Shown here: positions 2,223-59,103 of the stretch, in pieces | Numbering within the stretch: position 1 is the first letter of the stretch | Layout of the letters: every line of letters starts with the position of its first letter | Source: Bacilli bacterium | GTDB lineage: Bacteria > Bacillota_I > Bacilli_A > RFN20 > CAG-826 | Length of the DNA: 64,000 nucleotides | Reading direction: 5' to 3' | Assembly: GCA_045113315.1 (NCBI GenBank) | Contig: JBGUIX010000006.1 | Location: forward strand, 168,756 to 232,755 | Notes under the pieces: generated by a model | Database searches by the model: none | What the model saw: only the letters and a program-made list of their open reading frames with translations | What the model was told of the DNA's origin: nothing | Program-made: the position numbers and the translations under genes

Positions 2223-2228
2223 ATTTTT

Positions 2229-2424
2229 AGCCGTTGAGGAAGAGGAGTAATTATCTTTCTTAAAATAGAGAGTCGAGGATGGTGGAAGCTCGATATAAGG
2301 AAATAATGAAGGTCGCTTCGGAGGATAGTTGCCTAGCGAAAATAGGTTAATGAAGTGCGTTAGAAATAACGAATTAAGGTGGTACCGCGCTGATAGCGTC
2401 CTTAAAAATAGGGACGCTTTTATA
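2229..2424 (+). promoter_or_regulatory. T-box riboswitch leader of valS, with a terminator hairpin
   Basis: Canonical T-box sequence AATTAAGGTGGTACCGCG at 2372-2389. Intrinsic terminator AGCGTCC-N9-GGACGCTTTTAT at 2395-2424. Upstream stem-I-like hairpins carry a candidate GUC (Val) specifier in GAAGGUCGC. Confidence 0.75.
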
Positions 2425-2439
2425 TTAGGAGGAAATTAT

Positions 2440-5034
2440 ATGCTTGAAAAAAGATATGATCCGCACAAAGTTGAAGAAGGAAAATACGAGACTTGGAAGT
2501 CTAAAGGATATTTCACCGCTGGTGATAAATCTAAACAAGCTTTCTCGATGGTTATTCCTCCTCCAAATGTGACGGGTAAACTACATATTGGACATACTTG
2601 TCAAACCACAATCCAAGATATCGTAGCTAGATATAAAAAGATGCAAGGATATGACGTTTTGTGGCTCCCAGGTATGGATCACGCTGGTATTGCCACCCAA
2701 GCGAAAGTGATGGAGAAACTCCGTAACAACGGAGTGGATGTCACTAAAATCACTCGTGAAGAATTTCTAAAAGCGGCTTGGGGATGGAAAGATGAATACG
2801 CAAATAACATTCATTCTCAATGGGCCAAGATGGGTTTATCTTTAGATTACACTAGAGAGAGATTTACTCTTGATGATGGACTTAATTATGCCGTTAGAAC
2901 TGTCTTTGTATCTTTATACAATAAAGGATTAATCTATCAAGGTGAAAGAATCATCAACTGGGATCCAGTGCAGATGACCGCGTTAAGCAATATTGAAGTC
3001 ATCCACCAAAATGACCCCGGCCAAATGTTTTATTTTAAATACAATGTGGTGGGTGAAAAAGACTATTTAATCGTCGCCACAACTAGACCAGAAACCATGT
3101 TTGGTGATGTCTGTGTGGTTGTTAACCCCAAAGATAAAAGATATAAAAAATATGTTGGTAAGAAGGTTATAAATCCAGCCAATGGTGAACAAATTCCAGT
3201 TATCGCTGATGAATATGTTGATATCTCCTTTGGAACAGGGGCGATGAAATGTACACCTGCTCATGATCCTAATGACTTTATCATCGGTGAAAAATATCAT
3301 TTTGAAAAACCAATCATCTTTAATAAAGACGCAACGATGAATGATAAGTGCGGTAAATATCAGGGCATGGATCGTTTTGAATGCCGTAAGGTTTTAGTAG
3401 AAAACATTAAAAAAGATGGTAATTTCATCAAAATTGAAAATATCGTTCACCCAGTTGGCCATTCTGAAAGAAGCCATGCGGTTGTTGAACCGATGCTTTC
3501 TAAACAGTGGTTTGTGAAGATGAGACCTTTAGCCGATCAAGCTTTGGCTAATCAAAAAACTAGTGGCAAAGTTGACTTTGTTCCAAGAAGATTTGAAAAG
3601 ACTTTCATCCAATGGATGGAAAATGCGGAAGACTGGTGTATTTCTCGTCAGTTATGGTGGGGACACCGCATTCCTGCTTATTATAATAAGCACACTGGCG
3701 AAGTTGTCGTTAGCATGGATCCACCAAAAGATATGGAAAATTATGAGCAAGAGAGCGATGTTTTAGACACTTGGTTCTCTAGTGCTTTATGGCCATTCTC
3801 TACTTTAGGTTGGCCTAATAAGACTGAAGATTTTGAACGTTATTTCCCAACCGACACAATGGTTACTGCTTACGATATTATCTTCTTCTGGGTCTCTCGT
3901 ATGATTTTCCAATCCTTAGAAATGAATCACGTTAGACCGTTTAAAGAAGTGGTGATTCATGGTTTAGTAAGAGATGAACTCGGTCGTAAGATGTCTAAAT
4001 CATTAGGTAATGGTGTCGATCCAATCGAAGTTATCGATAAATATGGCGCGGACGCTTTAAGATATTTCTTAACCACAAATGCGGCGCCTGGACAAGATAT
4101 GCGTTATATCGAAGAGAAGGTCATTGCCTCTTCTAATTACCTCAATAAAATCTGGAATTCAGCGAGATATGTCCTTTCAGTTTTACCAGAGAAATTTGAA
4201 CCAAAAGAGGTTAATGTTAAAGAATTATCTCCTCTCGATCAATGGATTATTAATCGTTTAGAAAAGACTATTAAAGCTGTGACCTTAAATATGGAAAAAT
4301 ATGACTTTAACGCAGCGAGTAGTCACTTATATAACTTCGTTTATGATGATTTCTGCTCTGAGTATTTAGAGATGAGTAAAGTCTCTTTATCTTCCGATGA
4401 TGAAAAAGTGAAAAATGTTACTTATCAAACATTATTTAAATGTTTAAAAGATATTATCTTACTTATCTATCCATATACTCCATTTATTGGAGAAGAATTA
4501 TATTTGAATTTACCAGTTCATCTAGAATCTATCATGCTTGAATCTTATCCAAAATATGATGCTCATCTCGTACATTCAATAGTTGATAAACAAGTAGAAG
4601 TTTTATTCTCTATTATTAGAGATGTTCGTAATTATAAGATTGAAAACAAATTAGCGCCTAACGCTAGTTTAGATTTATCTCTTAACTTAAGAATTAAGAT
4701 GTTTGACGGTTATCAAATCTATCTAGAAAGATTTACCTTCTCCAAAGTCAAAGAAGTTGATGATTCGATCGTTAACATGCGTGGTGAACTGAAGATTTAT
4801 GATAACGCCGATTTATTAATCGTTAATGAAGCGGGTAAAGAAGATATCTTAAGAAGAATCGATAAAGAGATTAGCGAAGAAGAAAATGAGATTTTAAGAT
4901 GTCAAAAGATGCTTTCTAATCCAAACTTCATCGCTAAAGCTCCAAAAGAAAAAGTGAAACTTGAAGAAGAAAAACTTAAAACTCATCAAGAAAACTTAGC
5001 TATGCTAAAAGAGAAAAAAGAAAAACTTTCTTAA
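2440..5034 (+). CDS. valS: Valyl-tRNA synthetase
   Basis: Class I HIGH (PPPNVTGKLHIGH) and KMSKS (KMSKSLGN) motifs, C-terminal coiled coil. Start ATG at 2440 preceded by GGAGGA. Confidence 0.9.
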   Translation: MLEKRYDPHKVEEGKYETWKSKGYFTAGDKSKQAFSMVIPPPNVTGKLHIGHTCQTTIQDIVARYKKMQGYDVLWLPGMDHAGIATQAKVMEKLRNNGVDVTKITREEFLKAAWGWKDEYANNIHSQWAKMGLSLDYTRERFTLDDGLNYAVRTVFVSLYNKGLIYQGERIINWDPVQMTALSNIEVIHQNDPGQMFYFKYNVVGEKDYLIVATTRPETMFGDVCVVVNPKDKRYKKYVGKKVINPANGEQIPVIADEYVDISFGTGAMKCTPAHDPNDFIIGEKYHFEKPIIFNKDATMNDKCGKYQGMDRFECRKVLVENIKKDGNFIKIENIVHPVGHSERSHAVVEPMLSKQWFVKMRPLADQALANQKTSGKVDFVPRRFEKTFIQWMENAEDWCISRQLWWGHRIPAYYNKHTGEVVVSMDPPKDMENYEQESDVLDTWFSSALWPFSTLGWPNKTEDFERYFPTDTMVTAYDIIFFWVSRMIFQSLEMNHVRPFKEVVIHGLVRDELGRKMSKSLGNGVDPIEVIDKYGADALRYFLTTNAAPGQDMRYIEEKVIASSNYLNKIWNSARYVLSVLPEKFEPKEVNVKELSPLDQWIINRLEKTIKAVTLNMEKYDFNAASSHLYNFVYDDFCSEYLEMSKVSLSSDDEKVKNVTYQTLFKCLKDIILLIYPYTPFIGEELYLNLPVHLESIMLESYPKYDAHLVHSIVDKQVEVLFSIIRDVRNYKIENKLAPNASLDLSLNLRIKMFDGYQIYLERFTFSKVKEVDDSIVNMRGELKIYDNADLLIVNEAGKEDILRRIDKEISEEENEILRCQKMLSNPNFIAKAPKEKVKLEEEKLKTHQENLAMLKEKKEKLS

Positions 5035-5036
5035 TT

Positions 5037-5091
5037 ATTTTTGAACATTTTACCGATTAACCCCCCTATTTGTGATATAGGAGGGTTTTTT
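5037..5091 (+). promoter_or_regulatory. Conserved leader element, copy A (TTTTTGAACATTT...CCCCCCTATTTGTGATATAGGAGG-N7-ATG)
   Basis: Near-identical copies at 34820-34874 (+) and 59048-59103 (-), all at a fixed distance from an ATG. Contains the SD AGGAGG within a hairpin CCCCCCUAU/AUAGGAGGG followed by a U-run. Confidence 0.5.
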
Positions 5092-5277
5092 ATGAGAAAG
5101 ATCATTTTAACTAAAGAAGAATGTGATAACCAAAAGGTGGGAGAAGCGATTTCCCTAACAGCGGTGATGGCTATTGCGGCGATTGCCGTTATGGCGGTAG
5201 TTGTCTATCGTTTATTCATGTCTGGAAAAGGTGGTGCGACTATTCCAGGTGGATTTAAATTCTCATGGGCGGAATAA
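5092..5277 (+). CDS. Hypothetical 61-aa single-pass membrane peptide
   Basis: ATG 7 nt after AGGAGG. MRKIILTKEECDNQKVGEA, then a TM helix ISLTAVMAIAAIAVMAVVVY, then a Gly-rich tail. The TAA stop is 1 nt before the radC TTG start. Confidence 0.4.
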   Translation: MRKIILTKEECDNQKVGEAISLTAVMAIAAIAVMAVVVYRLFMSGKGGATIPGGFKFSWAE

Positions 5278-5278
5278 T

Positions 5279-5959
5279 TTGTCTAAGATTAATCACTTAC
5301 CGTTATTAGATAGACCTAGAGAGAAAGCTTTTCGTTATGGGATTGATAAATTATCAGACCACGAATTATTAGCCTTATTAATTGAAAGTGGGACGAAAGA
5401 AGAATCAGCGGTTGATATCGCTTATCGAATTATTAGTGCTTCTAACGGTTTAGTTTATCTATTTCAAAAGCCATTCTCTGATTTGACATACTTTAAGGGA
5501 GTGGGAAACGCTAAAGCTATTAAAATAGCCGCTTCTTTTGAAATTGCCAAAAGACTGATGATTGCTAGTGAAGAAAAGCCATATGTTTTAAAGGGAGAAG
5601 AAATCGCGGAGAAATATATCAAAATATTAAATGGATTAACTCAAGAAAGTATGTATCTAGTGATATTAGATAAAAAGAAGAAGATAATCCATGAAACTAA
5701 CATGTATCGCGGTAATGAAAGTAGTTTAAATACTTCCTATCGACAAATACTAAAAGAAGTCATCATCCATAACGGTTCTTATTTCTATATAGTTCATAAT
5801 CATCCAAGTGGAGATGCATTACCAAGCGAGGAAGATATCTTTTTTACGTCAGGAATTATTCATGAATCGAAGAAACTAAAACTAAAAATGCTCGATCATT
5901 TCATTATTGGAAAGGGTCAATACTACTCATTTCTACATTCGAAGATGGTCATAATATAA
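5279..5959 (+). CDS. radC: RadC-like JAB/MPN-domain protein (UPF0758)
   Basis: N-terminal (TTG)SKINHLPLLDRPREKAF matches the RadC consensus. HNHPSGDALPSEED is the JAMM motif. TTG start at 5279 preferred over the ATG at 5201, which overlaps the upstream peptide ORF. Confidence 0.75.
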   Translation: MSKINHLPLLDRPREKAFRYGIDKLSDHELLALLIESGTKEESAVDIAYRIISASNGLVYLFQKPFSDLTYFKGVGNAKAIKIAASFEIAKRLMIASEEKPYVLKGEEIAEKYIKILNGLTQESMYLVILDKKKKIIHETNMYRGNESSLNTSYRQILKEVIIHNGSYFYIVHNHPSGDALPSEEDIFFTSGIIHESKKLKLKMLDHFIIGKGQYYSFLHSKMVII

Positions 5960-6039
5960 AAGTTTAGATTATGGCTTAAAAAATATTTAAGAAAATTATT
6001 GAAGTTTATATATAACTTTTGTTATATTAATAACGTTGT

Positions 6040-6130
6040 CGCCTCACTAGCTACAACCGCATAGAGAAGGTTTGCAAAACCTATTAAGGTTACCTTAATA
6101 GCGAGTCCTTAGTGAATCTAAAATAAGGAG
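6040..6130 (+). promoter_or_regulatory. Structured 5' leader of rplU (candidate L21 autoregulatory leader)
   Basis: Several nested hairpins (GGTTTGCAAAACC; AAGGTTACCTTAA; TCACTAG..CTTAGTGA) just upstream of the rplU RBS AAGGAGG. Confidence 0.3.
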
Positions 6131-6137
6131 GGACATT

Positions 6138-6443
6138 ATGTACGCAATTATCGAAACAGGTGGTAAACAAGTCCGTGTCGAAGTCGGTAGCAAAATTTAC
6201 GTTGAGAAATTAGAAGCCGAAGTCGGAAGTGTTGTCACCATCGACAAAGTTCTCTTAGTCGGAGACAAAACTGTGAAAGTCGGTACTCCATATGTGGAAG
6301 GCGCCAAAGTCACAGCCAAAGTCGAAAAACAAGGAAAGAGCAGAAAAATCCGTGTTTTCAAGTATAAGAGCAAGAGCAATGAACACAAGACCATTGGTCA
6401 TCGTCAACCATATACTTGCTTAGTCGTTGAAAGCATCAAGTAA
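6138..6443 (+). CDS. rplU: 50S ribosomal protein L21
   Basis: [17 protein letters not shown]... is canonical L21. Confidence 0.9.
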
Positions 6444-6445
6444 TC

Positions 6446-6751
6446 ATGATTAAAGTTTTAATCAAACAAGAGGAGAAGAAATTAGTTTCCTTAAAAGTTA
6501 GTGGACATGCTAATAGTGCACCACATGGTGAAGATCTCGTCTGTGCAGCCGTCAGTGCTGTCCTAGTAGGAGGTCTTAATAATTTAGCAAATCCTAAAGA
6601 CTTCGATATTAAGATATCGGAAGGAAATACCTATGTAATCGTCAAAAATAAGATTTCTTCCCACGATGAAATTGTCTTAGAAACAATCATCACTAGTCTA
6701 AAGACTATTGAAGAGAGTTATGGCAAATTCATCCAAATCAAAAATATTTAG
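6446..6751 (+). CDS. prp: Ribosomal-processing cysteine protease Prp (YsxB)
   Basis: Lies between rplU and rpmA. Conserved [15 protein letters not shown] motif. Confidence 0.8.
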
Positions 6752-6766
6752 AAAGGGTGTCGTCGT

Positions 6767-7055
6767 TATGATGTTTAAATTAAATCTACAACTCTTCGCT
6801 TCTAAAAAAGGTGTTGGTTCAACTAAAAACGGTCGTGATTCCGCTGGTCGTCGTCTAGGAGCTAAAGTCGCTGATGGACAATATTGCCACTGCGGTTCCA
6901 TTATCTATCGTCAAAGAGGAACCAGAATTTATCCAGGGGAAAATACCAAAAGAGGCAAAGATGATACAATCTTCGCAACCGCTTCCGGTATTGTTCGTTA
7001 TGAACGCCTTGGCAAAGATCGCACTTGCGTGAGAGTTGTTGTCGCTAGCAAATAG
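6767..7055 (+). CDS. rpmA: 50S ribosomal protein L27 with an N-terminal propeptide
   Basis: [25 protein letters not shown] has the Prp cleavage site motif (F/ASKKG). Confidence 0.9.
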
Positions 7056-7073
7056 TGATAATAATTTGTAAAT

Positions 7074-7103
7074 AAGACCACTTATTTGTGGTCTTTTTAT
7101 TTT
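7074..7103 (+). terminator. Rho-independent terminator after rpmA
   Basis: AAGACCAC-TTATTT-GTGGTCTT followed by TTTTTATTTT. Confidence 0.75.
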
Positions 7104-7135
7104 GCTTTATATATAATATAACTAGGTACATATTC

Positions 7136-8095
7136 ATGAAAAAGATTTCATTAGTTATTCCAATGTATAACGAAGAGGAAATGGTTCCTTTGTTATTTTC
7201 TACTTTAAACGAAAAATTATTCGTTCCATTAAAAGATAGATATGCTTTTGAAGTGGTCGCTATTAATGATGGTTCCAAAGACAAAACTTTAGAATTATTA
7301 AAAATAGAACAGGAAAAATATCCTCAATTAGTGATTGTTAATCTATCTAGAAACTGGGGACAAGAACCGGCTGTTAGAGCGGGACTAGTGACCGCTAGTG
7401 GAGAGGCTGTTATTCCGATGGATGCTGATTTACAAGATCCACCAGAAATCATTCCGCAAATGTTAGAGATGTGGAATAACGGTTATGAAGTCGTGAATGC
7501 CATCCGTGTTTCAAGAAGTAAAGACACTTCATTTAAAAGAAATAGCGCTGGTATATTCTATAGATTCTTAGATAAGATTTCACCTAAGGTGAAAATACCA
7601 AATAACGTCAATAATTTCCGTTTATTAGATAGAAGAGTAGTTGATGAAGTGAATGCGATGAGTGAGACTAACCGCATTTTAAGAGTGGAGATTCCATTTG
7701 TTGGTTTTAAAACTGGAGCTGTCGAAATTGTTCGCGCTAAAAGAGCCAAAGGTGAAAGCCATTATCCACTTAAAGCTATGGTTTCTTTAGCGAAAAACTC
7801 CATGCTTTCAGTGAGTGTTAAACCTTTAGAATATCCCGTTTATATCGCGATCTTTTTAGCGAGTACTTATATGCTTTCTGCTATTGCAGAATTAGTGTTA
7901 TTTATTCTAAAACTTTGTAAAGTTATCGATATTTCTTCATTAGCCCTTTGGTCATGGTTAGTGATTAATGTCATATTATTTATCGCTACTATTATCGTTT
8001 CTATCCAAGCCCTTAATTCCTTATATCTTGGAAAAGCGGTGGAAGAAAGTGCAAAAAGACCAAGTGTTATCATTAAGGAAATTATTAGAAAATAA
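7136..8095 (+). CDS. Family-2 glycosyltransferase (polyprenyl-phosphate sugar transferase, GtrB/DPM1-like) with two C-terminal TM helices
   Basis: VIPMYNEE..INDGSKD..DADLQDP is a GT2 DxD-type fold, plus C-terminal hydrophobic helices. ATG at 7136; the GTG at 7088 lies inside the terminator. Confidence 0.75.
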   Translation: MKKISLVIPMYNEEEMVPLLFSTLNEKLFVPLKDRYAFEVVAINDGSKDKTLELLKIEQEKYPQLVIVNLSRNWGQEPAVRAGLVTASGEAVIPMDADLQDPPEIIPQMLEMWNNGYEVVNAIRVSRSKDTSFKRNSAGIFYRFLDKISPKVKIPNNVNNFRLLDRRVVDEVNAMSETNRILRVEIPFVGFKTGAVEIVRAKRAKGESHYPLKAMVSLAKNSMLSVSVKPLEYPVYIAIFLASTYMLSAIAELVLFILKLCKVIDISSLALWSWLVINVILFIATIIVSIQALNSLYLGKAVEESAKRPSVIIKEIIRK

Positions 8096-8097
8096 TT

Positions 8098-9375
8098 ATG
8101 TTTATAGATCGTGCTGTCATTGAGGTAAGAAGTGGAAAAGGTGGCGATGGCGCCATCGCTTTCTTGCGTGAAAAATTCGTGCCCAAAGGTGGCCCAGCTG
8201 GAGGTAACGGTGGTCGTGGTGCTTCTATCTATTTAAGAGCTAATAGCCACATCAATACCTTGTTTAATTTCCGTCATAGTAAAACCTTTATCGGCAAAGA
8301 CGGAGAAAAAGGTGGCATTAAAAACCAATTTGGTAAATATGCCGAAGATGTCATTATTGATGTCCCAGTTGGTACCGTCGTCTTCGAAGAAGAAGGTCAT
8401 AAATTTTTAGGTGATTTAAACGAAGATGGCAAGATCATTAAAGTTGCTAAAGGTGGAAGAGGTGGAAGAGGCAATTCGGCATTTAAAAGTTCCACTAATC
8501 GCGCCCCTAAGATTGCTGAAAATGGTGAACCAGGAGAAAGAAAAAGATTAATTCTAGAATTAAAATTATTAGCTGATGTCGGTTTAGTAGGTTTCCCAAG
8601 TGTTGGCAAATCAACTTTATTAAGTGTTGTTAGTTCTGCTAGACCAGAAATCGCTGATTATCCATTTACCACAATTGTTCCTAATTTAGGTGTTGTCTCT
8701 TTAAAGGATGGTCGTTCATTTGTGATGGCGGATCTTCCAGGTTTAATCGAAGGGGCCCATCTAGGTAAAGGATTAGGCTTACAATTCTTAAGACATATTG
8801 AAAGATGTCGTGTTATTATCCATGTCATCGATATGGGTAATTCAGGGAGAGATCCTATTAATGATTACAAAGTAATCAATGAAGAGCTTAAACAATATGG
8901 TTTTGGCTTAGAAAATAGACCTCGTATTCTTTTGGCCAGCAAGATGGATGAAGACGGGGCTAAACAAAGATTAGAAGAGTTTAAAAAAGAGATTAAAGAA
9001 GAAATTATTCCGATTTCCGCTTTATCAGAAGAAGGCATTGAACTAGCTTTATATAAATGTGCTGACTTATTAGAAAAAACACCTCTATTTCCTCTATACG
9101 ATGAAAGTAGTGATGAACTCGATAATAAAGTTTATGAACTAGAAGAAGAAACTAAGCCATTTGTGGTGGAAAAAATTAAAAGCCATGAATTTAGAATTAG
9201 TGGTGAACAAATTGTTAAATTTTATCGTATGACTAATATCTCCACCGATGAAGGCATGATGGTTTTAATGACTAGATTAAGAAAGCTTAGAGTGGATGAT
9301 GAACTCGAAAGATTAGGAGCTGAAGATGGTGATATCGTCTACTTAGACGATTTCTCATTTGAATATGTGAGTTAA
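8098..9375 (+). CDS. obg: GTPase Obg
   Basis: Gly-rich N-terminal domain, G motifs GFPSVGKST and DLPG, C-terminal OCT domain. Confidence 0.9.
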   Translation: MFIDRAVIEVRSGKGGDGAIAFLREKFVPKGGPAGGNGGRGASIYLRANSHINTLFNFRHSKTFIGKDGEKGGIKNQFGKYAEDVIIDVPVGTVVFEEEGHKFLGDLNEDGKIIKVAKGGRGGRGNSAFKSSTNRAPKIAENGEPGERKRLILELKLLADVGLVGFPSVGKSTLLSVVSSARPEIADYPFTTIVPNLGVVSLKDGRSFVMADLPGLIEGAHLGKGLGLQFLRHIERCRVIIHVIDMGNSGRDPINDYKVINEELKQYGFGLENRPRILLASKMDEDGAKQRLEEFKKEIKEEIIPISALSEEGIELALYKCADLLEKTPLFPLYDESSDELDNKVYELEEETKPFVVEKIKSHEFRISGEQIVKFYRMTNISTDEGMMVLMTRLRKLRVDDELERLGAEDGDIVYLDDFSFEYVS

Positions 9376-16291: not shown

Positions 16292-18097
16292 ATGTTATTC
16301 GGCAAATACATCAATAAATATTATCTAAAATATGCGATTTTCTTCATTATTGGTATCGCCGCTTTAATACTAGTGGATGTGGCTCAGATATTTGTCCCAC
16401 AGTATCTAGGAAAGATTGTTGATATCTTAAGTAATGTTAAAGAAGCACCTTTAAACGCTGATCAGCAAAATCAGATTTTATATATGATTATTGCGACCAT
16501 TGTTATCGCACTCATCATGATGCTTGGCCGATTCTTATGGAGAATCACGATTTTCCATGCTTCTTTTAAGATTGAAGCTAATTTAAGAAAAGAGATGTTT
16601 TTAAAAGCTGAAAGATTATCTCAACGTTATTATCACACTAATAGTGTGGGGACGGTGATGGCGTGGTTTACTAATGATATTGAAACCATTCAAGAATTCT
16701 TTGGATGGGGAACTATTATGCTTGTTGATGCTGGCTTTTTAGCCATCTTAGTGATTGTCGAAATGTTCATATTAGAACCGATTTTATCTTTAGTAGCTAT
16801 TATCCCTATTTTATTAATCGCTTTATGGGGCGCACTCGTCGAGAAATTTATGTCAAAACGTTGGGAATATCGTCAAACTTCCTTCGATAATTTGTATGAT
16901 TTCTGTCAAGAAACATTTACTGGTATCAGTGTGATTAAAGCCTTTGTTAAAGAAAATCAACAATTGAAAGCTTTCGCTAAACTTGCCAGAAGAGATAAAG
17001 ATGTGAATGTTGATTTTGCGCGTGTATCAGTTTTATTTGATTCTTTGATTAATGCGATTATCGCTATCATATTAGCGATCATAATGGGTGTTGGTGGATA
17101 TTTTGTTTATGCTTACGTTACTAATAATCCAGTTGTTTTATTTGAACATGAAGTGACATTAAAACCAGGACAACTGATCACTTATGCTGGCTATTTTGAT
17201 TTATTAATTTGGCCGATGATGGCGATGGGCCATATCATCGCGATGAGAAGTAGAGCGAAAACTTCTTTAAAACGTATCACTCGTTTTTTAGATGAAGAAG
17301 AAGAGATTAAAGACCTTGAAGGTAGTGAAGAATTAAAAGATGTAAAAGGGAAAATCACCTTTAATCATTTTTCTTTCACTTACCCAGGAAGTAATAATAA
17401 AACCATCGATGATATTTCTTTAGAAATAAAAGAAGGAGAAACTATCGGTATTGTGGGAAGAATTGGCTCTGGTAAAACTACTTTAGTCAATTCCTTATTA
17501 AGACTTTATAACTTAGAAGAAAATTCTTTATTAATCGATGACAAAGACATTATGAAATGTAGCATTTCTTCGATTAGAAAAGCGATCGCTTATGTTCCAC
17601 AGGATAATTTCTTATTCTCTGATACCATCGAAAACAATATTAGTTTTTCTAAAGAGAATTTAGATGTTGATTTAATCAAACAAGGAGCGATATTCTCCGA
17701 TATCGATAAAGATATCTCCGATTTCAAACAAGGCTATGAAACAGTCTCTGGAGAAAGAGGAGTGACTCTTTCCGGTGGTCAAAAACAAAGAATTTCTATC
17801 GCTAGAGCTTATGTTAAAAAAGCTCCGATTATGATTCTAGATGATTCCGTTAGCGCGGTAGATGTAAAAACTGAAGAGACAATTTTAAAAAATATTGCCG
17901 AACAAAGAAAAGGCAAGACTACTTTAGTAGTGGCTTCTCGTATTTCTACAGTCTCTCATCTTGATAAGATTGTGGTTTTAGATAACGGCAAATTAGAAGC
18001 GTTTGGTTCTCACCAAGAATTATTAAAGATTTCACCAACCTATAGCAGGATGGTTTATTTACAAAAATTAGAAGAAGAAGTGAAAGGAGGAAATTAA
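16292..18097 (+). CDS. ABC exporter subunit (TMD-NBD), degenerate catalytic base
   Basis: Six-TM N-terminal domain. Walker A GRIGSGKTT, signature LSGGQKQR, Walker B IMILDDS (Asp instead of the catalytic Glu). Confidence 0.85.
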   Translation: MLFGKYINKYYLKYAIFFIIGIAALILVDVAQIFVPQYLGKIVDILSNVKEAPLNADQQNQILYMIIATIVIALIMMLGRFLWRITIFHASFKIEANLRKEMFLKAERLSQRYYHTNSVGTVMAWFTNDIETIQEFFGWGTIMLVDAGFLAILVIVEMFILEPILSLVAIIPILLIALWGALVEKFMSKRWEYRQTSFDNLYDFCQETFTGISVIKAFVKENQQLKAFAKLARRDKDVNVDFARVSVLFDSLINAIIAIILAIIMGVGGYFVYAYVTNNPVVLFEHEVTLKPGQLITYAGYFDLLIWPMMAMGHIIAMRSRAKTSLKRITRFLDEEEEIKDLEGSEELKDVKGKITFNHFSFTYPGSNNKTIDDISLEIKEGETIGIVGRIGSGKTTLVNSLLRLYNLEENSLLIDDKDIMKCSISSIRKAIAYVPQDNFLFSDTIENNISFSKENLDVDLIKQGAIFSDIDKDISDFKQGYETVSGERGVTLSGGQKQRISIARAYVKKAPIMILDDSVSAVDVKTEETILKNIAEQRKGKTTLVVASRISTVSHLDKIVVLDNGKLEAFGSHQELLKISPTYSRMVYLQKLEEEVKGGN

Positions 18098-18099
18098 TC

Positions 18100-19863
18100 G
18101 TGGCCGAAGATTTTGATAAGCTCATTGGTGATAAAAAGATCCCACATAAAATTATGTGGAAAAGAATGTTTACCTATGTCAAACCAGAAATGGGCTGGCT
18201 CATTTTAGCGTCATTTTTAATCTTAGTTAACATCGCGATTGATGTTTCCTTACCTTTATTCCTCTCTAAATTAACCGACAACCTACAGTCCGTTAATATT
18301 TCTTTGAAAGTTATCTTGATGATCGCCATTGGCTATTGTCTATTAGGTGTTATCGGACAGGTCTTCGTCTATCTAGAATCGATGATTTTACAAAGAGCTG
18401 GTCAAAAGATTGTTTATAACTTAAGAATGGAAGTCTTTGAACATATTGAAAACATGTCACAAGATCAATTCAATCAGATGCCTGTTGGCTCACTAGTGAC
18501 TAGAGCGGTATCTTATACATCATCTTTATCGGAATTATTCACGACGATTTTAGTGAACCTTATCAAGAACATTTTGATGATTATCGGGACTTATGGAATT
18601 ATGTTCTTTATATCCTGGAAATTATCCTTGTCGATGCTACCTTTTGTCGCGATAGTAGCGGTTATTTCATTCTTCTTTAGAAGAATAATTCATAAAATAT
18701 TCACTGAAGAAAGAAAAAATATCTCCGATTTAAATACCTTCTTAAACGAGAATCTTTCCGGCATGAAAATCATTCAAATTTTCAATCAAGAAACTCGTAA
18801 GGCCAAAGAGTTTGATAAGAAGAATGAACAATTGAGAAAGACTCGTTATAAAGTTCTTGTGGCCTTTGGTATTTATCGTCCACTTATTTCATTTATTTAT
18901 TTTTTAGCGATTGCGGTGACATTTTCCTTTGCCTTTAAGAGCTTAGTCAGTGCGGGTGTTATCGTGGCTTTCTATGTCTATTTATCAAGATTCTTTAACC
19001 CGATTCAAAATATCGCTGATCAACTTAACGGAATTCAAAAAGCAGTGACTGCTTCAGAGAGATTATTTAACCTTTTAGATGTTCCTCCAAAAGTGCTAGA
19101 TAAAAAAGACGCTATCGAGATAAATGAGATTAAAGGCAAGATTGAATTTAAAGATGTTTGGTTCTCCTATAAACCTGATGAATGGATTTTAAAAGGTGTT
19201 TCTTTTACGATTGAACCCAAACAAACGTGTGCATTTGTAGGTGCGACAGGAGCAGGTAAAACAACCATTCTTTCTTTAATCGTACGAAATTATGAAATTC
19301 AAAAAGGTCAAATCTTAATCGATGGTGTGGATATTAGAAATATAAAGATAAAATCTTTAAGAAAAGCCATTGGTCAAATGTTACAAGATGTCTTCTTATT
19401 CTCTGGAACAATCAAAGATAACATCACCCTTCATGACGATTCTTATTCTCTGCAAGAAATTAGAGAAATTTGTGAATATGTAAACGCTGATAAATTTATC
19501 GATAAACTTGACAAGAAATATGATGATGTAGTCATTGAAAGAGGGGAGAACTTCTCACAAGGTCAAAGACAATTGTTGTCGTTTGCAAGAACTGTTTTAC
19601 ATAAACCGCAATTACTGATTTTAGATGAAGCTACTGCTAACATTGATACAGAAACAGAATCTTTGATTCAAGAATCGTTAGAAAAGATGAAAAATATTGG
19701 AACAATGCTTATTGTCGCTCATCGATTATCGACGATTCAAAAAGCTGATCAGATTATCGTCTTACAGCATGGAGAAGTAATAGAACGTGGTAATCATCAA
19801 CAGTTACTTAAGAATCACGGATATTATTACAAACTCTATAAACTTCAGTTTGAAGAAAGATAA
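18100..19863 (+). CDS. ABC exporter subunit (TMD-NBD), degenerate signature
   Basis: Walker A GATGAGKTT, Walker B LLILDEAT, non-canonical signature FSQGQRQ. Confidence 0.85.
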   Translation: MAEDFDKLIGDKKIPHKIMWKRMFTYVKPEMGWLILASFLILVNIAIDVSLPLFLSKLTDNLQSVNISLKVILMIAIGYCLLGVIGQVFVYLESMILQRAGQKIVYNLRMEVFEHIENMSQDQFNQMPVGSLVTRAVSYTSSLSELFTTILVNLIKNILMIIGTYGIMFFISWKLSLSMLPFVAIVAVISFFFRRIIHKIFTEERKNISDLNTFLNENLSGMKIIQIFNQETRKAKEFDKKNEQLRKTRYKVLVAFGIYRPLISFIYFLAIAVTFSFAFKSLVSAGVIVAFYVYLSRFFNPIQNIADQLNGIQKAVTASERLFNLLDVPPKVLDKKDAIEINEIKGKIEFKDVWFSYKPDEWILKGVSFTIEPKQTCAFVGATGAGKTTILSLIVRNYEIQKGQILIDGVDIRNIKIKSLRKAIGQMLQDVFLFSGTIKDNITLHDDSYSLQEIREICEYVNADKFIDKLDKKYDDVVIERGENFSQGQRQLLSFARTVLHKPQLLILDEATANIDTETESLIQESLEKMKNIGTMLIVAHRLSTIQKADQIIVLQHGEVIERGNHQQLLKNHGYYYKLYKLQFEER

Positions 19864-34800: not shown

Positions 34801-34824
34801 AAAGTTGCTTCGGCAACTTTTTTT
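34801..34824 (+). terminator. Rho-independent terminator after deoB
   Basis: AAAGTTGC-TTCG-GCAACTTT + TTTT, running directly into motif copy B. Confidence 0.75.
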
Positions 34825-34874
34825 GAACATTTCGGCTTTTTCACCCCCTATTTGTGATATAGGAGGACTTTTAA
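34820..34874 (+). promoter_or_regulatory. Conserved leader element, copy B
   Basis: TTTTTGAACATTTCGGCTTTTTCACCCCCTATTTGTGATATAGGAGGACTTTTAAATG. Confidence 0.5.
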
Positions 34875-35435
34875 ATGGAAAAGTTTAAAGCAGAAAGAAA
34901 CTATAGCTACGATTATGGCAGTAAAGTAGCAATAAAGCAGTCAGGAATGAGAGAACAATTAGACTGGATAAAAAGGCAATTAGAATACGTTTCTTTTTCA
35001 GAACAGTATTATCTAAGATACGATTTAAAGAAAGGTGAGATTTACGAATTTGATTGGGGGATTAATGTTAACGCTGAATTCTCGAATAGACATTATGGAG
35101 TCGTTTTAGTGGATTCGGATGTCTTTAATCCCTTAGTAACTGTCTGCCCTTTAAAGACGAATCATGGATCATGTAACAAGAAAAGTGATGTAGATCTAGG
35201 AAATGTTGAATGCTTACGAACAAATAAACATACAATAGCAGTCATCAATCAAATAAGAACGATAGACAAGTTAAGGCTATACATGAAACGGGCTATTGGT
35301 TTAGCAGATTCAAACCCAATTTTTGAGAAAACTGAAAGTGAAAAACGAACGATAAATAGGTTAGAAGATGATAAGCTAAATATGATCATTGATGCCTATA
35401 AAGACTACCTTTCTGGAAATTCCGAAAATGGATAA
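34875..35435 (+). CDS. MazF/PemK/EndoA-fold protein with about 50-aa N- and C-terminal extensions; no adjacent antitoxin
   Basis: Core KKGEIYEFDWGINVNAEFSNRHYGVVLVDSD...PLVTVCPLKT...TIAVINQIRTIDKLRL parallels B. subtilis EndoA ([27 protein letters not shown]...ILLEQIRTIDKQRL). Confidence 0.7.
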   Translation: MEKFKAERNYSYDYGSKVAIKQSGMREQLDWIKRQLEYVSFSEQYYLRYDLKKGEIYEFDWGINVNAEFSNRHYGVVLVDSDVFNPLVTVCPLKTNHGSCNKKSDVDLGNVECLRTNKHTIAVINQIRTIDKLRLYMKRAIGLADSNPIFEKTESEKRTINRLEDDKLNMIIDAYKDYLSGNSENG

Positions 35436-57844: not shown

Positions 57845-59047
57845 CTATTCATTTTCTTTTTGGCGTCTCATCCTATTACCGAGTTTGACTTTAACTTTGT
57901 TAAATTCATCGATGTCTTCGTTCATGTTCACAATCGCATCCATCGCTTTATATAAACTTAACGAAATACAGGAATAAAAAATGACATAAGGTGTTGATGA
58001 AATACCACATAAATGCATCGTTAGTAAGGCGGTCGCAATAATTAAACCAGCATAGATATAAGCGCTCGCTAAATTCATATAGCTATAATCGTAAGCTAAT
58101 TTGTGTAAATTATGTGCCTCTTCTTTAAAAGAAGATACGTCGCTAACACTATCTAAAGAATTCTCTTTGGCTTCAATTTGTGTTTTCTTGTTCTTTAAGA
58201 ATGGATTAACGACGAATAAATCGAATAGAACCAAAACTAACGGAACAACCACTAGCAAAGCATTTCTTCGATCATTTAATAATATTAAGACCACTAAACT
58301 AATCGAAGTTAAAATCAATAAGACATAATGAAGTGGGCTAGATAATGATAATTTCTTAAATTGTTCAAACCTAAATAGATAATCTTTTAAATGATCATTA
58401 GGCACCAATTCTTCTTTGAAGAAATAATCATCTAGTTTCTTCATCATGTTATAGCTTATCGCCCTTAAGAGTAATTCGAACAAAATCGCCCCTGCTAAGA
58501 ATATGAAAGGAACATAAATCGGTGTGCCGTCTTTCACAAAATAAACCGCTAGTAAAACTAAGCCCACTATTAAGGCTTCCATAAACCCTAATAGGATGCG
58601 ACTGGTTAAAGATAATGGATTAAAACTTTGATATGGACATTTCCTCTCATTATAATCATCGATCATTAGTCCAGTTCCATCCCATATAGAAATAAATTTC
58701 TTTAACGGCATGGATGTCTTTCCTTTACTAGGATCGAGGTAAAAGACGCGATTAAACTTCACTCCTGTCACTAGAACTGCGTGTTTAGCGTCATTTTCAA
58801 GGCTTAAGGAAAGAATTAATGGAAAGGATGTTTCTTTACCTAACTCATCTTTTTCCTCCACTTTAAAGCCTTTTAAACTGAGCCCATATTCATAAGCGAT
58901 TTCTGTTAAGTCGGTAAATGAATATAGACCATGATTTTCGTCCTGCGGTATGAACAAGTAATTCTTATCCTTGTTTAGATTAGCGAGTATCATCTTTAAA
59001 CAAGCAAATCCGCAGTCATCTTTTTGAATCTGTGGGATATAAAACAT
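57845..59047 (-). CDS. Orphan peptidase-C39-domain protein fused to a 5-6-helix membrane domain; no ABC ATPase
   Basis: N-terminal QKDDCGFACLKM (C39 Cys), AKHAVLVTG (His), YLDPSKG (Asp), then hydrophobic helices. No Walker or signature motifs. ATG at 59047 sits 7 nt after AGGAGG of motif copy C; the ORF-track start at 59197 reads through the motif and the dnaJ terminator. Confidence 0.7.
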   Translation of the reverse strand: MFYIPQIQKDDCGFACLKMILANLNKDKNYLFIPQDENHGLYSFTDLTEIAYEYGLSLKGFKVEEKDELGKETSFPLILSLSLENDAKHAVLVTGVKFNRVFYLDPSKGKTSMPLKKFISIWDGTGLMIDDYNERKCPYQSFNPLSLTSRILLGFMEALIVGLVLLAVYFVKDGTPIYVPFIFLAGAILFELLLRAISYNMMKKLDDYFFKEELVPNDHLKDYLFRFEQFKKLSLSSPLHYVLLILTSISLVVLILLNDRRNALLVVVPLVLVLFDLFVVNPFLKNKKTQIEAKENSLDSVSDVSSFKEEAHNLHKLAYDYSYMNLASAYIYAGLIIATALLTMHLCGISSTPYVIFYSCISLSLYKAMDAIVNMNEDIDEFNKVKVKLGNRMRRQKENE

Positions 59048-59103
59048 AAAATCTCCTCCTATATCACAAATAGGTAGGGGAAAAGCCAAAATGTTCAAAA
59101 AAA
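59048..59103 (-). promoter_or_regulatory. Conserved leader element, copy C (minus strand)
   Basis: Reverse complement reads TTTTTGAACATTTTGGCTTTTCCCCTACCTATTTGTGATATAGGAGGAGATTTTATG. Confidence 0.5.

Follow-up and report, generated by a model that had tools for sequence, protein, structure and literature searches.

A 61-codon reading frame directly upstream of radC in the 64,000-nucleotide stretch of DNA analysed here (the window) is a real gene, and comparative data indicate that together with radC it is a conserved, lineage-specific two-gene cassette, for which coupled expression is strongly supported. RadC is among the most widely conserved bacterial proteins that lack an established activity, partner or substrate, and it is competence-induced in several model species. 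The peptide, whose sequence is better conserved than that of RadC, is the first conserved candidate partner for RadC and offers a testable lead in more than 100 species of uncultured gut and rumen Bacilli.

The peptide gene and its junction with radC

The initial annotation had described a 61-aa reading frame starting 7 nt past an AGGAGG, with its TAA stop at 5275–5277 and a TTG at 5279 as the start of radC, and these positions agree with the sequence. By direct reading, the AGGAGG Shine-Dalgarno (SD) sequence occupies 5079–5084 on the forward strand, and a G followed by six Ts (5085–5091) fills the 7 nt between it and the ATG at 5092. The 61 codons encode MRKIILTKEECDNQKVGEAISLTAVMAIAAIAVMAVVVYRLFMSGKGGATIPGGFKFSWAE, and a single T at 5278 separates the stop codon from the TTG at 5279–5281, which opens the RadC frame, (M)SKINHLPLLDRPREKAF... 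The features of this region are as follows.

2225–2406 (+): T-box leader of valS, where the upstream transcription unit begins (Rfam RF00230, score 100.6 bits, gathering score 93)
2440–5034 (+): valS, 864 aa from ATG 2440 (ORF list; tRNA-synt_1 and Val_tRNA-synt_C in the same species)
5092–5277 (+): peptide gene, 61 aa, including the TAA stop (homologues, 80 of 80 loci intact, pN below pS)
5275–5281 (+): junction TAA-T-TTG, putative translational coupling point (sequence; junction statistics from 80 loci)
5279–5959 (+): radC, 226 aa, with a UPF0758_N helix-hairpin-helix domain and a JAB domain (Pfam 2e-28 and 7.8e-23; NCBIfam NF000642)
6045–6119 (+): L21 leader, marking the start of the next operon, rplU (Rfam RF00559, 43.4 bits)

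With the family defined by NF000642/TIGR00608 and by Pfam PF04002 plus PF20582, the window gene is a standard RadC, comparable to RadC/YicR (UPF0758), the JAB-domain member of the streptococcal competence regulon. Read from TTG 5279, the protein matches Pfam UPF0758_N from residue 4, which corresponds to profile position 1, as well as the RadC JAB domain; it passes the cut-offs of NF000642 (183 bits against 180) and TIGR00608 (165.4 against 133.85), and its JAMM metal motif HxH-x7-S-xx-D, read in the translation as HNHPSGDALPSEED, is intact. An NCBI record of the same species (L002) likewise calls a RadC of 226 aa. An ATG at 5201 had been named as a competing start, and in the ORF list the in-frame upstream start at that place is instead a TTG. 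It is worth noting that radC start calls are inconsistent in these genomes, ranging from 226 to 242 aa within the same species.

Upstream, the assignment of valS is matched by 864-aa gene calls in the same species that carry tRNA-synt_1 and Val_tRNA-synt_C domains, and valS is the upstream neighbour of the peptide gene in most of the 80 loci that we compared. In Bacillus, radC is part of a maf-radC-mreBCD operon. The window radC likewise sits between valS and rplU, but mreBCD is missing here and the coupled peptide gene stands 5′ of radC.

Homologues of the peptide numbered 190 at E ≤ 10, with E ≤ 6.4e-18 for all among the matches listed (120); these approximately 190 clusters span 56–63 aa, and a profile search of 1.84 billion representatives returned only 69 clusters at 50% identity. 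Pfam and NCBIfam hold no named family for the peptide; one family member is labelled "bacteriocin-like protein" by JGI. The hosts of the 80 loci are related uncultured gut and rumen Bacilli, and in all 80 the frame that had been annotated from one sequence is intact, without frame disruption and directly 5′ of radC, its length being 56–63 aa (one copy is called longer from an upstream ATG). Family members of 79–184 aa were considered as natural fusions; they appear to be gene-call or frameshift artefacts, and none is fused to RadC.

The substitution pattern likewise bears out the annotated frame. The peptide core shows a pN of 0.217 against a pS of 0.595, and its dN/dS of about 0.3 is an upper bound only because dS is close to saturation; on these figures the core is under strong purifying selection. 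Across the 80 loci, median identity to the window was 65% for the peptide core, 67% for ValS, 73% for L21 and 38% for RadC, and the peptide was better conserved than RadC in every one. Residues G17, P52, G53, G54, K56, F57 and W59 are invariant or near-invariant in the family, although conservation of the tail looks higher than it truly is in the 80 loci because these were chosen with the pattern PGG[FW]KF[ESD]W; the profile search nevertheless recovers the tail in the majority of distant members.

The proposal of coupled expression with radC gained strength from the same comparison. Indeed, radC lies directly 3′ of the peptide gene in 80 of 80 loci, including those of the most divergent members, and in 79 of them scripted measurement places its start between −14 and +9 nt relative to the peptide stop; the junction of the outlier (L060) reads TAATG by eye. 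The commonest junction is a TAATG overlap (33 of 80), an ATGA overlap occurs at 6, and the radC start codon is ATG in 58 loci, TTG in 15 and GTG in 6, so that TTG or GTG accounts for 21 of the 80 scripted starts.

Membrane helix, tail and candidate leader

The peptide can be divided into three parts.

5092–5142 (+): degenerate double-glycine-type leader, residues 1–17, with L6 at −12, T7 at −11, E10 at −8, C11 at −7, V16 at −2 and G17 at −1 (predicted from a profile of 252 sequences and from members with Gly-Gly)
5143–5220 (+): single transmembrane helix, residues 18–43 (hydropathy 2.71 over residues 20–38; AF2)
5227–5271 (+): β-hairpin tail, residues 46–60, predicted to be cytoplasmic, with the turn P52-G53-G54 and a second strand of the form F/W-K-F-x-W (AF2, conservation, flank charges)

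The transmembrane helix that had been noticed by eye was recovered by calculation, the best 19-residue hydropathy window being residues 20–38 with a mean Kyte-Doolittle value of 2.71. In the AF2 model a helix extends over residues 18–43 with pLDDT 93–94 in its central residues 21–40, the core is a fully hydrophobic helix of 24–26 residues with positive charges on its C side, and strands at 46–51 and 55–60 flank the near-invariant P52-G53-G54 turn. The flanks of the helix carry net charges of +2.7 on the C side and −0.9 on the N side, and in 94% of members the C flank exceeds the N flank in positive charge; the predicted topology is N-out and C-in, which would place the tail in the cytoplasm.

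Whether the first 17 residues resemble a double-glycine leader was answered differently for the window copy and for the family. The initial annotation had seen no clean double-glycine leader, which holds for the window peptide, where the two last leader residues are V-G, and fails at the level of the family, where, in a profile built on 252 sequences, 94% of members have L/M at −12, 76% have S/T at −11, 86% have E at −8, 76% have a hydrophobic residue at −7 and all (100%) have G at −1. At position −2, V accounts for 51%, G for 22%, T for 7% and P for 6%, and at position −4 H and I account for 37% and 25%. The window peptide itself carries the leader-helix signature of a hydrophobic −12 (L6), an acidic −8 (E10) and a hydrophobic −7 (C11), and a short helix is modelled by AF2 at residues 8–13; it lacks Gly-Gly (or Gly-Ala/Ser) at −2/−1 together with a hydrophobic −4, having V16-G17 and Q14 at these places. 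Gly-Gly combined with a hydrophobic −4 was found only in a minority of orthologues, for example L014, L024, L030 and L056, and members with textbook double-glycine leaders do exist, such as MRELTVDESKKILGG. In C39 enzymes, positions −2 and −4 weigh most in the recognition of PCAT leaders. Since the window's clade has Val at −2 and Gln or His at −4, leader cleavage may have been lost there or its specificity altered.

None of the curated models PF10439, PF04369, TIGR01847 and TIGR03949 was passed, and the window peptide matched none of them at all; sub-threshold matches appeared in a few members (Bacteriocin_IIc 0.0011, TIGR01847 0.011), and a regular-expression search of the window for other small ORFs with a canonical GG leader returned none. 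The peptide therefore shares with double-glycine leader peptides (ComC and the pediocin-like and lactococcin-like peptides; PF10439, TIGR01847) a leader of 15–18 residues with L/M at −12, S/T at −11, E at −8, a hydrophobic −7 and Gly at −1, a true Gly-Gly in about a fifth of its family, and a PCAT-type C39 peptidase encoded in the same genomes. It differs from them in that its clade has lost Gly at −2 and the hydrophobic −4, in that its mature part is a conserved membrane helix plus β-hairpin rather than a variable cationic peptide, and in that it has neither an immunity gene nor an ABC ATPase and appears always to be tied to radC in expression.

The shared 5′ module and the C39 protein

The peptide gene, a C39 gene and a third gene carry the same 5′ module, and copies of its motif occur three times in the window, at 5061 (+), 34843 (+) and 59054 (−), where shuffled sequences lead one to expect none.

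5038–5050 (+): upstream box TTTTTGAACATTT, the first block of the module (three exact copies, at a fixed 18-nt distance to the second block)
5059–5087 (+): RNA hairpin AACCC.CCUAU-UUGUGAU-AUAGG.GGGUU, whose 3′ arm contains the SD (RNAfold, covariation)
5086–5091 (+): U6 tract directly 3′ of the stem, a candidate terminator tail and the spacer between SD and AUG (sequence)
34820–34874 (+): third carrier of the module
34875–35435 (+): PemK/MazF-like ORF of 186 aa, the third gene under the module (Pfam PemK_toxin 1.7e-07)
57845–59047 (−): C39 peptidase fused to an ABC-exporter-type membrane domain, 400 aa, no ATPase domain; candidate leader peptidase (Pfam Peptidase_C39 7.5e-19)
59048–59101 (−): second carrier of the module (box, hairpin and SD), downstream of the dnaJ terminator

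RNAfold assigned −15.2 kcal/mol to positions 5030–5110 (z = −2.2). Among 36 aligned homologous regions, 79% of cells were paired in the hairpin register as compared to 49–58% when the register was slid, and the covariation score of 0.329 exceeded that of shuffles (0.233, with 0 of 500 reaching 0.329), many of the changes being U-G wobbles. At least 80% of the SD was paired as the 3′ arm in 61 of 73 peptide 5′ regions as compared to 39 of 117 control genes, an anti-SD pentamer was present in 31 of 75 peptide 5′ regions and in none of the 117 controls, and 30 of 75 unique homologous regions had a run of four or more Ts within the last 12 nt. The hairpin is absent or weak in approximately 15% of loci, mainly those without an upstream valS.

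The stem comprises 10 pairs and one C/A mismatch and is followed by U6; because of that mismatch a consensus terminator scan raised no flag. As far as its sequence can tell, the hairpin with U6 is terminator-like, and the earlier view that no terminator lies between the valS stop and the motif gave way accordingly, the motif itself being this stem-loop at 5059–5087 plus U6. Read-through from valS, which had been suggested to feed the unit, could still reach it, but the message would be poorly translatable since its SD is buried in the terminator-like hairpin.

The upstream box is possibly a −35-like promoter element, and related boxes (TTAGACA, TGAGACRG, TTGGACA) occupy the same place in relatives. 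A sigma-A promoter (TTGAAC ... TATTTG) was tried and set aside, its spacing in the window being 20 nt and its −10 candidates lacking the final T, and the shared module does not match a canonical sigma-A promoter. The idea that the palindrome is a DNA operator is likewise disfavoured, as loop length varies and U-G wobbles are many. Like the SD-sequestering 5′ hairpins of type I toxin mRNAs and RNA thermometers, the element pairs GGAGG with an anti-SD arm a few nucleotides before the AUG and keeps this pairing by compensatory and wobble changes, and like terminator/RBS overlaps its stem and U6 have, in the window, the form of an intrinsic terminator. Its loop and stem are stronger than those of fourU or ROSE thermometers, neither an antisense RNA nor an alternative structure was noted for it, and unlike other SD-sequestering hairpins it is common to at least two unrelated genes, those of the peptide and the C39 protein, across species.

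Among all SD-preceded starts in the window, only the peptide and C39 copies showed a strong SD-burying hairpin; the PemK-like copy folds too weakly for the SD-burying filter, and beside the PemK/MazF-like ORF there is no adjoining ORF of at least 40 aa (≥40), only short unannotated ORFs of 33–46 aa. A metagenome scan with the motif block CTATTTGTGATATAGGAGG gave two chance matches only, both within unrelated coding sequence, and so added no gene to the regulon of this species. C39 genes of other species also carry an SD-burying 5′ hairpin, which is similar in sequence to the peptide 5′ region of that same species. The hairpin, which could double as a terminator of the upstream gene, may gate a small regulon.

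The C39 gene lies approximately 54 kb from the peptide gene on the same contig, in three species, and outside the peptide operon, in a conserved dnaJ-C39-ybeY order. Across 33 homologues the catalytic residues Q6, C12, H89 and D105 of the C39 protein do not vary. The top Foldseek matches of the AF2 model (pLDDT 87.5) are to PCAT1 (E 4e-15, TMq 0.51–0.62, approximately 460 alignment columns), covering peptidase and membrane domain, and the model also aligns to the membrane domains of MsbA and CydDC. Pfam detected neither ABC_membrane nor the nucleotide-binding domain ABC_tran in the protein, which ends at residue 400, and nearly all of its 98 full-length homologue clusters measure 390–444 aa, most of them 395–405. 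There is a conserved PCAT lineage without an ATPase domain. The window protein has the same catalytic Gln, Cys, His and Asp as PCAT1, ComA and LahT, and its predicted fold superposes on the peptidase and six-helix exporter membrane domain of PCAT1; unlike these proteins it stops after the membrane domain, with a length of about 395–405 aa that is kept in its family, and its gene stands in a housekeeping neighbourhood (dnaJ, ybeY) rather than in a bacteriocin cluster.

A functional link between the peptide and this protein, initially called conceivable, is better supported than had been assumed, given the PCAT1-like fold, the occurrence in the same genomes, the same kind of 5′ hairpin and the double-glycine-type leader at the family level. 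From these sequence features we think that the peptide is probably processed by the ATPase-less PCAT.

Proposed mechanism and rival explanations

On balance we lean slightly towards an explanation in which the peptide and radC form a gated cassette that combines reinitiation, a hairpin gate, a C39-cleaved leader and a tail that works with RadC. Ribosomes ending on the peptide ORF would restart and thereby be the main source of radC translation, so that RadC output would follow translation of the peptide. The hairpin would stop most valS transcripts and keep read-through messages untranslatable, so that expression of the cassette and the C39 gene would require bypass or opening of the hairpin, for which a start site within it, a trans-acting factor or temperature could be responsible. 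The N-terminal 17 residues would act as a degenerate double-glycine leader, cut after G17 by the ATPase-less PCAT, and the mature 44-residue peptide would stay in the membrane in its N-out/C-in orientation. Its aromatic β-hairpin tail, with the P-G-G turn, would then work with RadC in the cytoplasm, its simplest role being that of a membrane tether or regulator. The more specific proposal, that RadC has a dedicated physical partner in the peptide, from which the ATPase-less PCAT removes the leader as combined peptidase and insertase, and whose cytoplasmic β-hairpin anchors or regulates RadC, we regard as doubtful at present. If true, it would provide the first defined interaction partner of RadC, and hence the first experimental handle on the RadC family, as well as the first role for a PCAT without ATPase.

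Could the peptide instead be an ordinary secreted class II bacteriocin or pheromone, cleaved and exported by the C39 protein and placed near radC by a shared competence-type regulon, as with ComC, CibAB and radC in streptococci? The GG-type leader in the family, the weak matches to bacteriocin leader models with the JGI label on one member, and the 5′ module common to the peptide and C39 genes, which suggests a regulon, all point this way, and in streptococci radC belongs to the core SigX competence genes (PMC5069739). We nonetheless consider this reading unlikely, as the helix and its C-side charges are what one expects of an integral membrane peptide, the C39 protein lacks an ATPase domain that would power export, no immunity-like or ABC gene adjoins the peptide in the loci examined, and a strict stop/start overlap with radC in approximately 80 species exceeds what co-regulation calls for. 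Moreover, across an order-level lineage the conservation of the mature part equals that of ValS, which is unusual for bacteriocins and pheromones. The small size, single hydrophobic helix and sequestered SD of the peptide would also suit a type-I-toxin-like membrane toxin whose translation is blocked by the SD-burying hairpin, RadC being merely co-transcribed, as would the enrichment of the strong 5′ hairpin over other genes and the presence of a PemK/MazF-like ORF under the same module. A toxin of this kind is, however, quite improbable for a gene that is neither patchy nor stand-alone, occurring at a fixed chromosomal site in 80 of 80 species loci, that is very highly conserved including its structured C-terminal hairpin and that appears to be translationally coupled to a downstream radC; an unsystematic look noticed no conserved antisense promoter or RNA.

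Two further readings connect the reading frame more directly to RadC. The RadC JAB metalloprotease might cut the peptide, as its substrate, after P-G-G in the way that JAMM enzymes trim ubiquitin-like tails after Gly-Gly; the near-invariant P52-G53-G54 with its short conserved tail, the retained HxH-x7-S-xx-D motif, the predicted cytoplasmic location that the tail would share with RadC and the strict linkage of the two genes would all fit. Yet the AF2 model puts P-G-G at a tight β-hairpin turn, which explains its invariance without cleavage, the F/W-K-F-x-W segment after GG is as conserved as the residues before it, which is unexpected for a discarded tail, no E1-like or other conjugation genes lie near the loci examined and, to our knowledge, RadC has not been reported to act as a protease, all of which makes this reading very improbable. 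That the frame serves as a regulatory upstream ORF for radC, where the act of translation matters and the amino acids do not, would account for the tight stop/start coupling and for the many radC starts that are not ATG and lack an obvious SD of their own, but it is hardly credible for a product whose amino acids are strongly conserved, with a core pN well below pS, seven invariant or near-invariant positions from G17 to W59, and higher conservation than RadC in 80 of 80 loci.

The favoured gated-cassette explanation suggests that a housekeeping membrane component can draw on double-glycine leaders and PCAT-type machinery. The papers that we found describe no small membrane partner of RadC; searches on RadC partners, on RadC with double-glycine peptides and on PCATs without ATPase together gave nothing relevant beyond the place of radC in competence regulons and a single precedent, the MAM protein. 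MAM of Faecalibacterium duncaniae is an envelope protein with a proposed PCAT-recognised leader and offers a precedent in which leader/PCAT-type cargo is neither weapon nor signal but a conserved structural part of the envelope (PMC12184118). Unlike the window peptide, MAM is a larger, abundant surface protein with no link to RadC, and its export is proposed to proceed through a complete PCAT (PMC12184118).

The peptide gene and its junction with radC

In the window, an AGGAGG (5079-5084) is followed by a G, six T and an ATG at 5092, which opens a 61-codon ORF (MRKIILTKEECDNQKVGEAISLTAVMAIAAIAVMAVVVYRLFMSGKGGATIPGGFKFSWAE) between valS and radC; its TAA stop (5275-5277) is separated by a single T from the TTG at 5279 that opens (M)SKINHLPLLDRPREKAF. 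The initial annotation had placed the ORF, Shine-Dalgarno (SD) and stop/start at exactly these positions. The window lineage consists of uncultured "Bacilli bacterium" MAGs from ruminant gut samples. A word-indexed search returned 190 peptide homologues at E <= 10, nearly all of 56-61 aa, with 65-87% identity among the 120 matches listed. Only 69 clusters came out of a profile search against 1.84 billion representatives, and the family is therefore small and lineage-restricted. Neither Pfam nor NCBIfam has a model covering the peptide, which belongs to no curated family and is annotated only as "hypothetical" or "bacteriocin-like".

Scanning a single genome for each species confirmed 118 peptide loci, and the 80 fetched derive from uncultured Bacilli, "Erysipelotrichaceae" and "Tenericutes" MAGs, along with Clostridium sp. 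CAG:288, Ca. Fiminaster and Ca. Alectryobacillus (Bacilli incertae sedis). The initial annotation had proposed checking relatives for frame-disrupting indels and estimating dN/dS. The ORF is intact in 80/80 loci at 56-63 aa (one is called longer from an upstream ATG), and in the core pN is well under pS (0.217 vs 0.595), with weaker constraint over the first 17 residues (0.424 vs 0.529); dS is close to saturation, which makes the median dN/dS, 0.31, an upper limit. Median identity to the window is 65% for peptide residues 18-61, 67% for ValS, 73% for L21 and 38% for RadC, and the peptide is better conserved than RadC in every one of the 80 loci. Conservation of eight residues is inflated by the retrieval pattern, PGG[FW]KF[ESD]W; a pattern-free profile search finds the same tail in most of the distant family members. 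These results mark the peptide ORF as a genuine and conserved gene. Six loci with Bacilli-type cassettes (L014, L015, L018, L053, L060 and L070) bear the names Azospirillum sp. CAG:239, Acutalibacteraceae, Lachnospiraceae, Gemmiger formicilis, Phocaeicola dorei and Prevotella sp., and are probably mis-binned or mislabelled MAGs. Two database proteins, P0145 (144 aa) and P0148 (184 aa), carry the helix and tail C-terminal to longer, unrelated N-terminal regions, one resembling a phage tail-fibre protein; both look like gene-call or assembly artefacts.

The product from TTG 5279 is a standard RadC: it aligns with Pfam UPF0758_N from its residue 4, at position 1 of the profile, matches the RadC JAB domain and scores above both NCBIfam RadC cut-offs. 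In the same species it is 226 aa in the NCBI record and 236, 241 or 242 aa according to other gene callers, a disagreement seen across window 5201-5281 and in the fetched loci L001-L004; the in-frame upstream codon at 5201, earlier taken for an ATG, is a TTG. By tblastn, RadC lies directly 3' of the peptide in 80/80 loci and valS lies 5' in most, not all; the radC overlap extends to the most divergent members, inspected one by one. The nearest radC start falls -14 to +9 nt from the peptide stop in 79/80 loci, the remaining one being a TAATG by eye. TAATG overlaps account for 33 junctions and ATGA overlaps for 6, the start codons are ATG (58), TTG (15) and GTG (6), and a longer RadC is ruled out in many of the loci by an in-frame stop a short way 5'. 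This pattern is a comparative signature of putative termination-reinitiation coupling, and across the 80 species it supports TTG 5279, and thus 226 aa, as the start of radC in the window. Comparison speaks strongly for the coupled expression suggested initially, and from the tight junctions we infer that RadC translation depends on translation of the peptide.

As first described, neither mreBCD nor minCD is present 3' of radC in the window; the L21 leader and rplU-prp-rpmA come immediately after radC (5960-8095), with a family-2 glycosyltransferase (7088-8095) between rpmA and obg. One divergent locus, L094, retains the order radC-minCD-M23-M50-rplU (5959-8738). Since minC-minD-M23-M50 is kept in this more distant locus, the loss was stepwise within the lineage.

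A shared 5' module with an SD-masking hairpin

Two blocks at fixed spacing, TTTTTGAACATTT - 18 nt - CTATTTGTGATATAGGAGG, occur three times in the window, preceding the peptide, a PemK/MazF-like ORF (34875) and the C39 protein (59047, minus strand). Shuffles give 0 expected copies of the second block.

Features of the module and the C39 gene
5038-5050, 34820-34832 and 59089-59101: box TTTTTGAACATTT, exact repeats, 18 nt from the hairpin block
5059-5087: hairpin AACCC.CCUAU / AUAGG.GGGUU, the second block plus flank, folded, with the SD in its 3' arm and then U6
57845-59047, minus strand: 400-aa protein like a peptidase-containing ABC transporter (PCAT), carrying an active-site C39 peptidase plus a six-helix membrane domain of ABC-exporter type

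Relatives have hairpins of the form CCUCC...loop...GGAGG in the same place, with energies of -10 to -20 kcal/mol. In 61/73 peptide 5' regions, 80% or more of the SD pairs as a 3' arm, as compared to 39/117 controls, which were strong-SD genes from these loci; 31/75 peptide 5' regions contain a strict anti-SD pentamer, against 0/117 controls and 4.4% of random windows. In an alignment of 36 sequences, 79% of cells are paired versus 49-58% in slid registers, and the covariation score of 0.329 (0.233 in shuffles) was reached by 0/500 shuffles. Pairing and covariation together show a transcribed hairpin that masks the ribosome-binding site. Both members of the outer pairs vary and U-G wobbles occur often, which points to sense-RNA pairing rather than a DNA operator. 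The initial annotation saw no terminator after valS; the module's own hairpin with U6 is terminator-like, and in the window it appears also to take the form of an intrinsic terminator. A U tract is found in only 30/75 peptide 5' regions.

No canonical sigma-A promoter fits the module in the window, where the box is spaced 20 nt from TATTTG. Relatives have different boxes at the equivalent position (TTAGACA, TGAGACRG, TTGGACA), and in many a -35-like box (nnGACA) lies ~18 nt ahead of the TAT in the 5' arm; if used, it could possibly give a transcript without the anti-SD arm. The PemK/MazF-like ORF (34820-35435, plus strand, including the module) encodes 186 aa with a 50-residue N-terminal extension, and shares its ~50-nt module with the peptide and C39 genes. 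It is flanked by a phosphopentomutase-like gene and nadD, and no ORF of at least 40 aa adjoins it, hence no obvious antitoxin gene.

Peptide topology, leader and candidate peptidase

The single transmembrane helix described earlier is borne out by a hydropathy maximum at residues 20-38 (mean 2.71) and by an AF2 model from 43 sequences (pLDDT 82), which has a short leader helix (8-13), a break at Q-K-V-G, a helix at 18-43 and a β-hairpin with strands 46-51 and 55-60. Given its turn at P52-G53-G54, the invariant P-G-G is best explained as a tight turn in this model. Net charge across the family is -0.9 in the N flank and +2.7 in the C flank; 94% of members have their more positive flank on the C side, and an N-out, C-in topology is predicted from this. 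Such a topology would put the aromatic second strand (F/W-K-F-x-W) on the cytoplasmic side, where RadC resides.

Leader profile of 252 unique sequences anchored on the Gly before the helix, with window residues
-12: hydrophobic 94%; L6
-11: T/S 76%; T7
-8: E 86%; E10
-7: hydrophobic 76%; C11
-4: H 37%, I 25%; Q14
-2: V 51%, G 22%, T 7%, P 6%; V16
-1: G 100%, partly by construction; G17

Distant members have textbook double-glycine leaders (for example, MRELTVDESKKILGG/EAITISLV and MLRKLSEEEMEEIRGG/EYIS). Taken with the window residues, the family profile argues that the window peptide carries a degenerate double-glycine leader. The earlier statement that it has no clean one thus holds for the window copy, with its V16-G17, but not for the family, whose profile is of double-glycine type. 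The loss of Gly -2 and hydrophobic -4 in the window's clade counts against efficient classical cleavage.

The C39 protein is a candidate leader peptidase. Its C39 domain matches at 7.5e-19, residues Q6, C12, H89 and D105 do not vary across 33 homologues, and its family comprises 98 clusters of about 395-405 aa, the gene always lying between dnaJ and ybeY. Its AF2 model (pLDDT 87.5) matches both the peptidase and membrane domains of PCAT1 (E 4e-15, TMq about 0.6), resembles other exporter membrane domains as well, and on structure comparison has no nucleotide-binding domain. The C39 gene and the peptide lie ~54 kb apart on one contig in the window and two other species, and contigs of matching length point to further such pairs. 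In the other species, too, a hairpin that buries the SD precedes the C39 gene, 3' of the dnaJ terminator. Comparison of C39 and same-species peptide 5' regions gave strong likeness for the locus pair L008/L096, likeness in the hairpin for L005/L097 and a shared TGAGACRG box for L099/L098. Of the functional link conceived initially, the shared module and these similar 5' regions speak for it, and the lost leader residues against it; co-regulation and an enzyme-substrate relation are plausible but unproven. Two full-length ABC exporter half-transporters (601 and 587 aa; ABC_membrane + ABC_tran) lie at 16292-19863 (plus strand), beside recJ and relA.

Proposed mechanism and alternatives

We lean slightly towards a reading in which the SD-masking hairpin would gate the peptide-radC cassette, reinitiation would yield RadC, the ATPase-less PCAT would cut off the peptide leader, and the mature peptide would remain in the membrane and act together with RadC. 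The analysis itself establishes the gene, its linkage to radC, the hairpin and the PCAT-like fold; translational coupling, leader processing, membrane topology and the interaction with RadC are inferences from it. A secreted bacteriocin or pheromone is disfavoured by the peptide's conservation and hydrophobicity, by the lack of immunity or ATPase genes and by the strict overlap with radC. Similarly, the operon structure and the presence of the gene in every locus examined weigh against a type-I-toxin-like role, and amino-acid conservation refutes a sequence-independent upstream ORF. Cleavage by the RadC JAB domain after P-G-G is likewise disfavoured, given the β-turn model and the conserved tail. 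By analogy with streptococci, where radC is a core SigX competence gene (PMC5069739), a competence-like regulon for the cassette is conceivable; the window's gene content, housekeeping only, counts against it.

A literature search found neither a RadC-coupled peptide nor a PCAT without an ATPase. The peptide is of real interest as a testable partner for RadC. The known kinds behind the cassette are double-glycine peptides and PCATs. Among earlier examples of a housekeeping cargo that bears a PCAT-type leader, MAM of Faecalibacterium (PMC12184118) comes closest.
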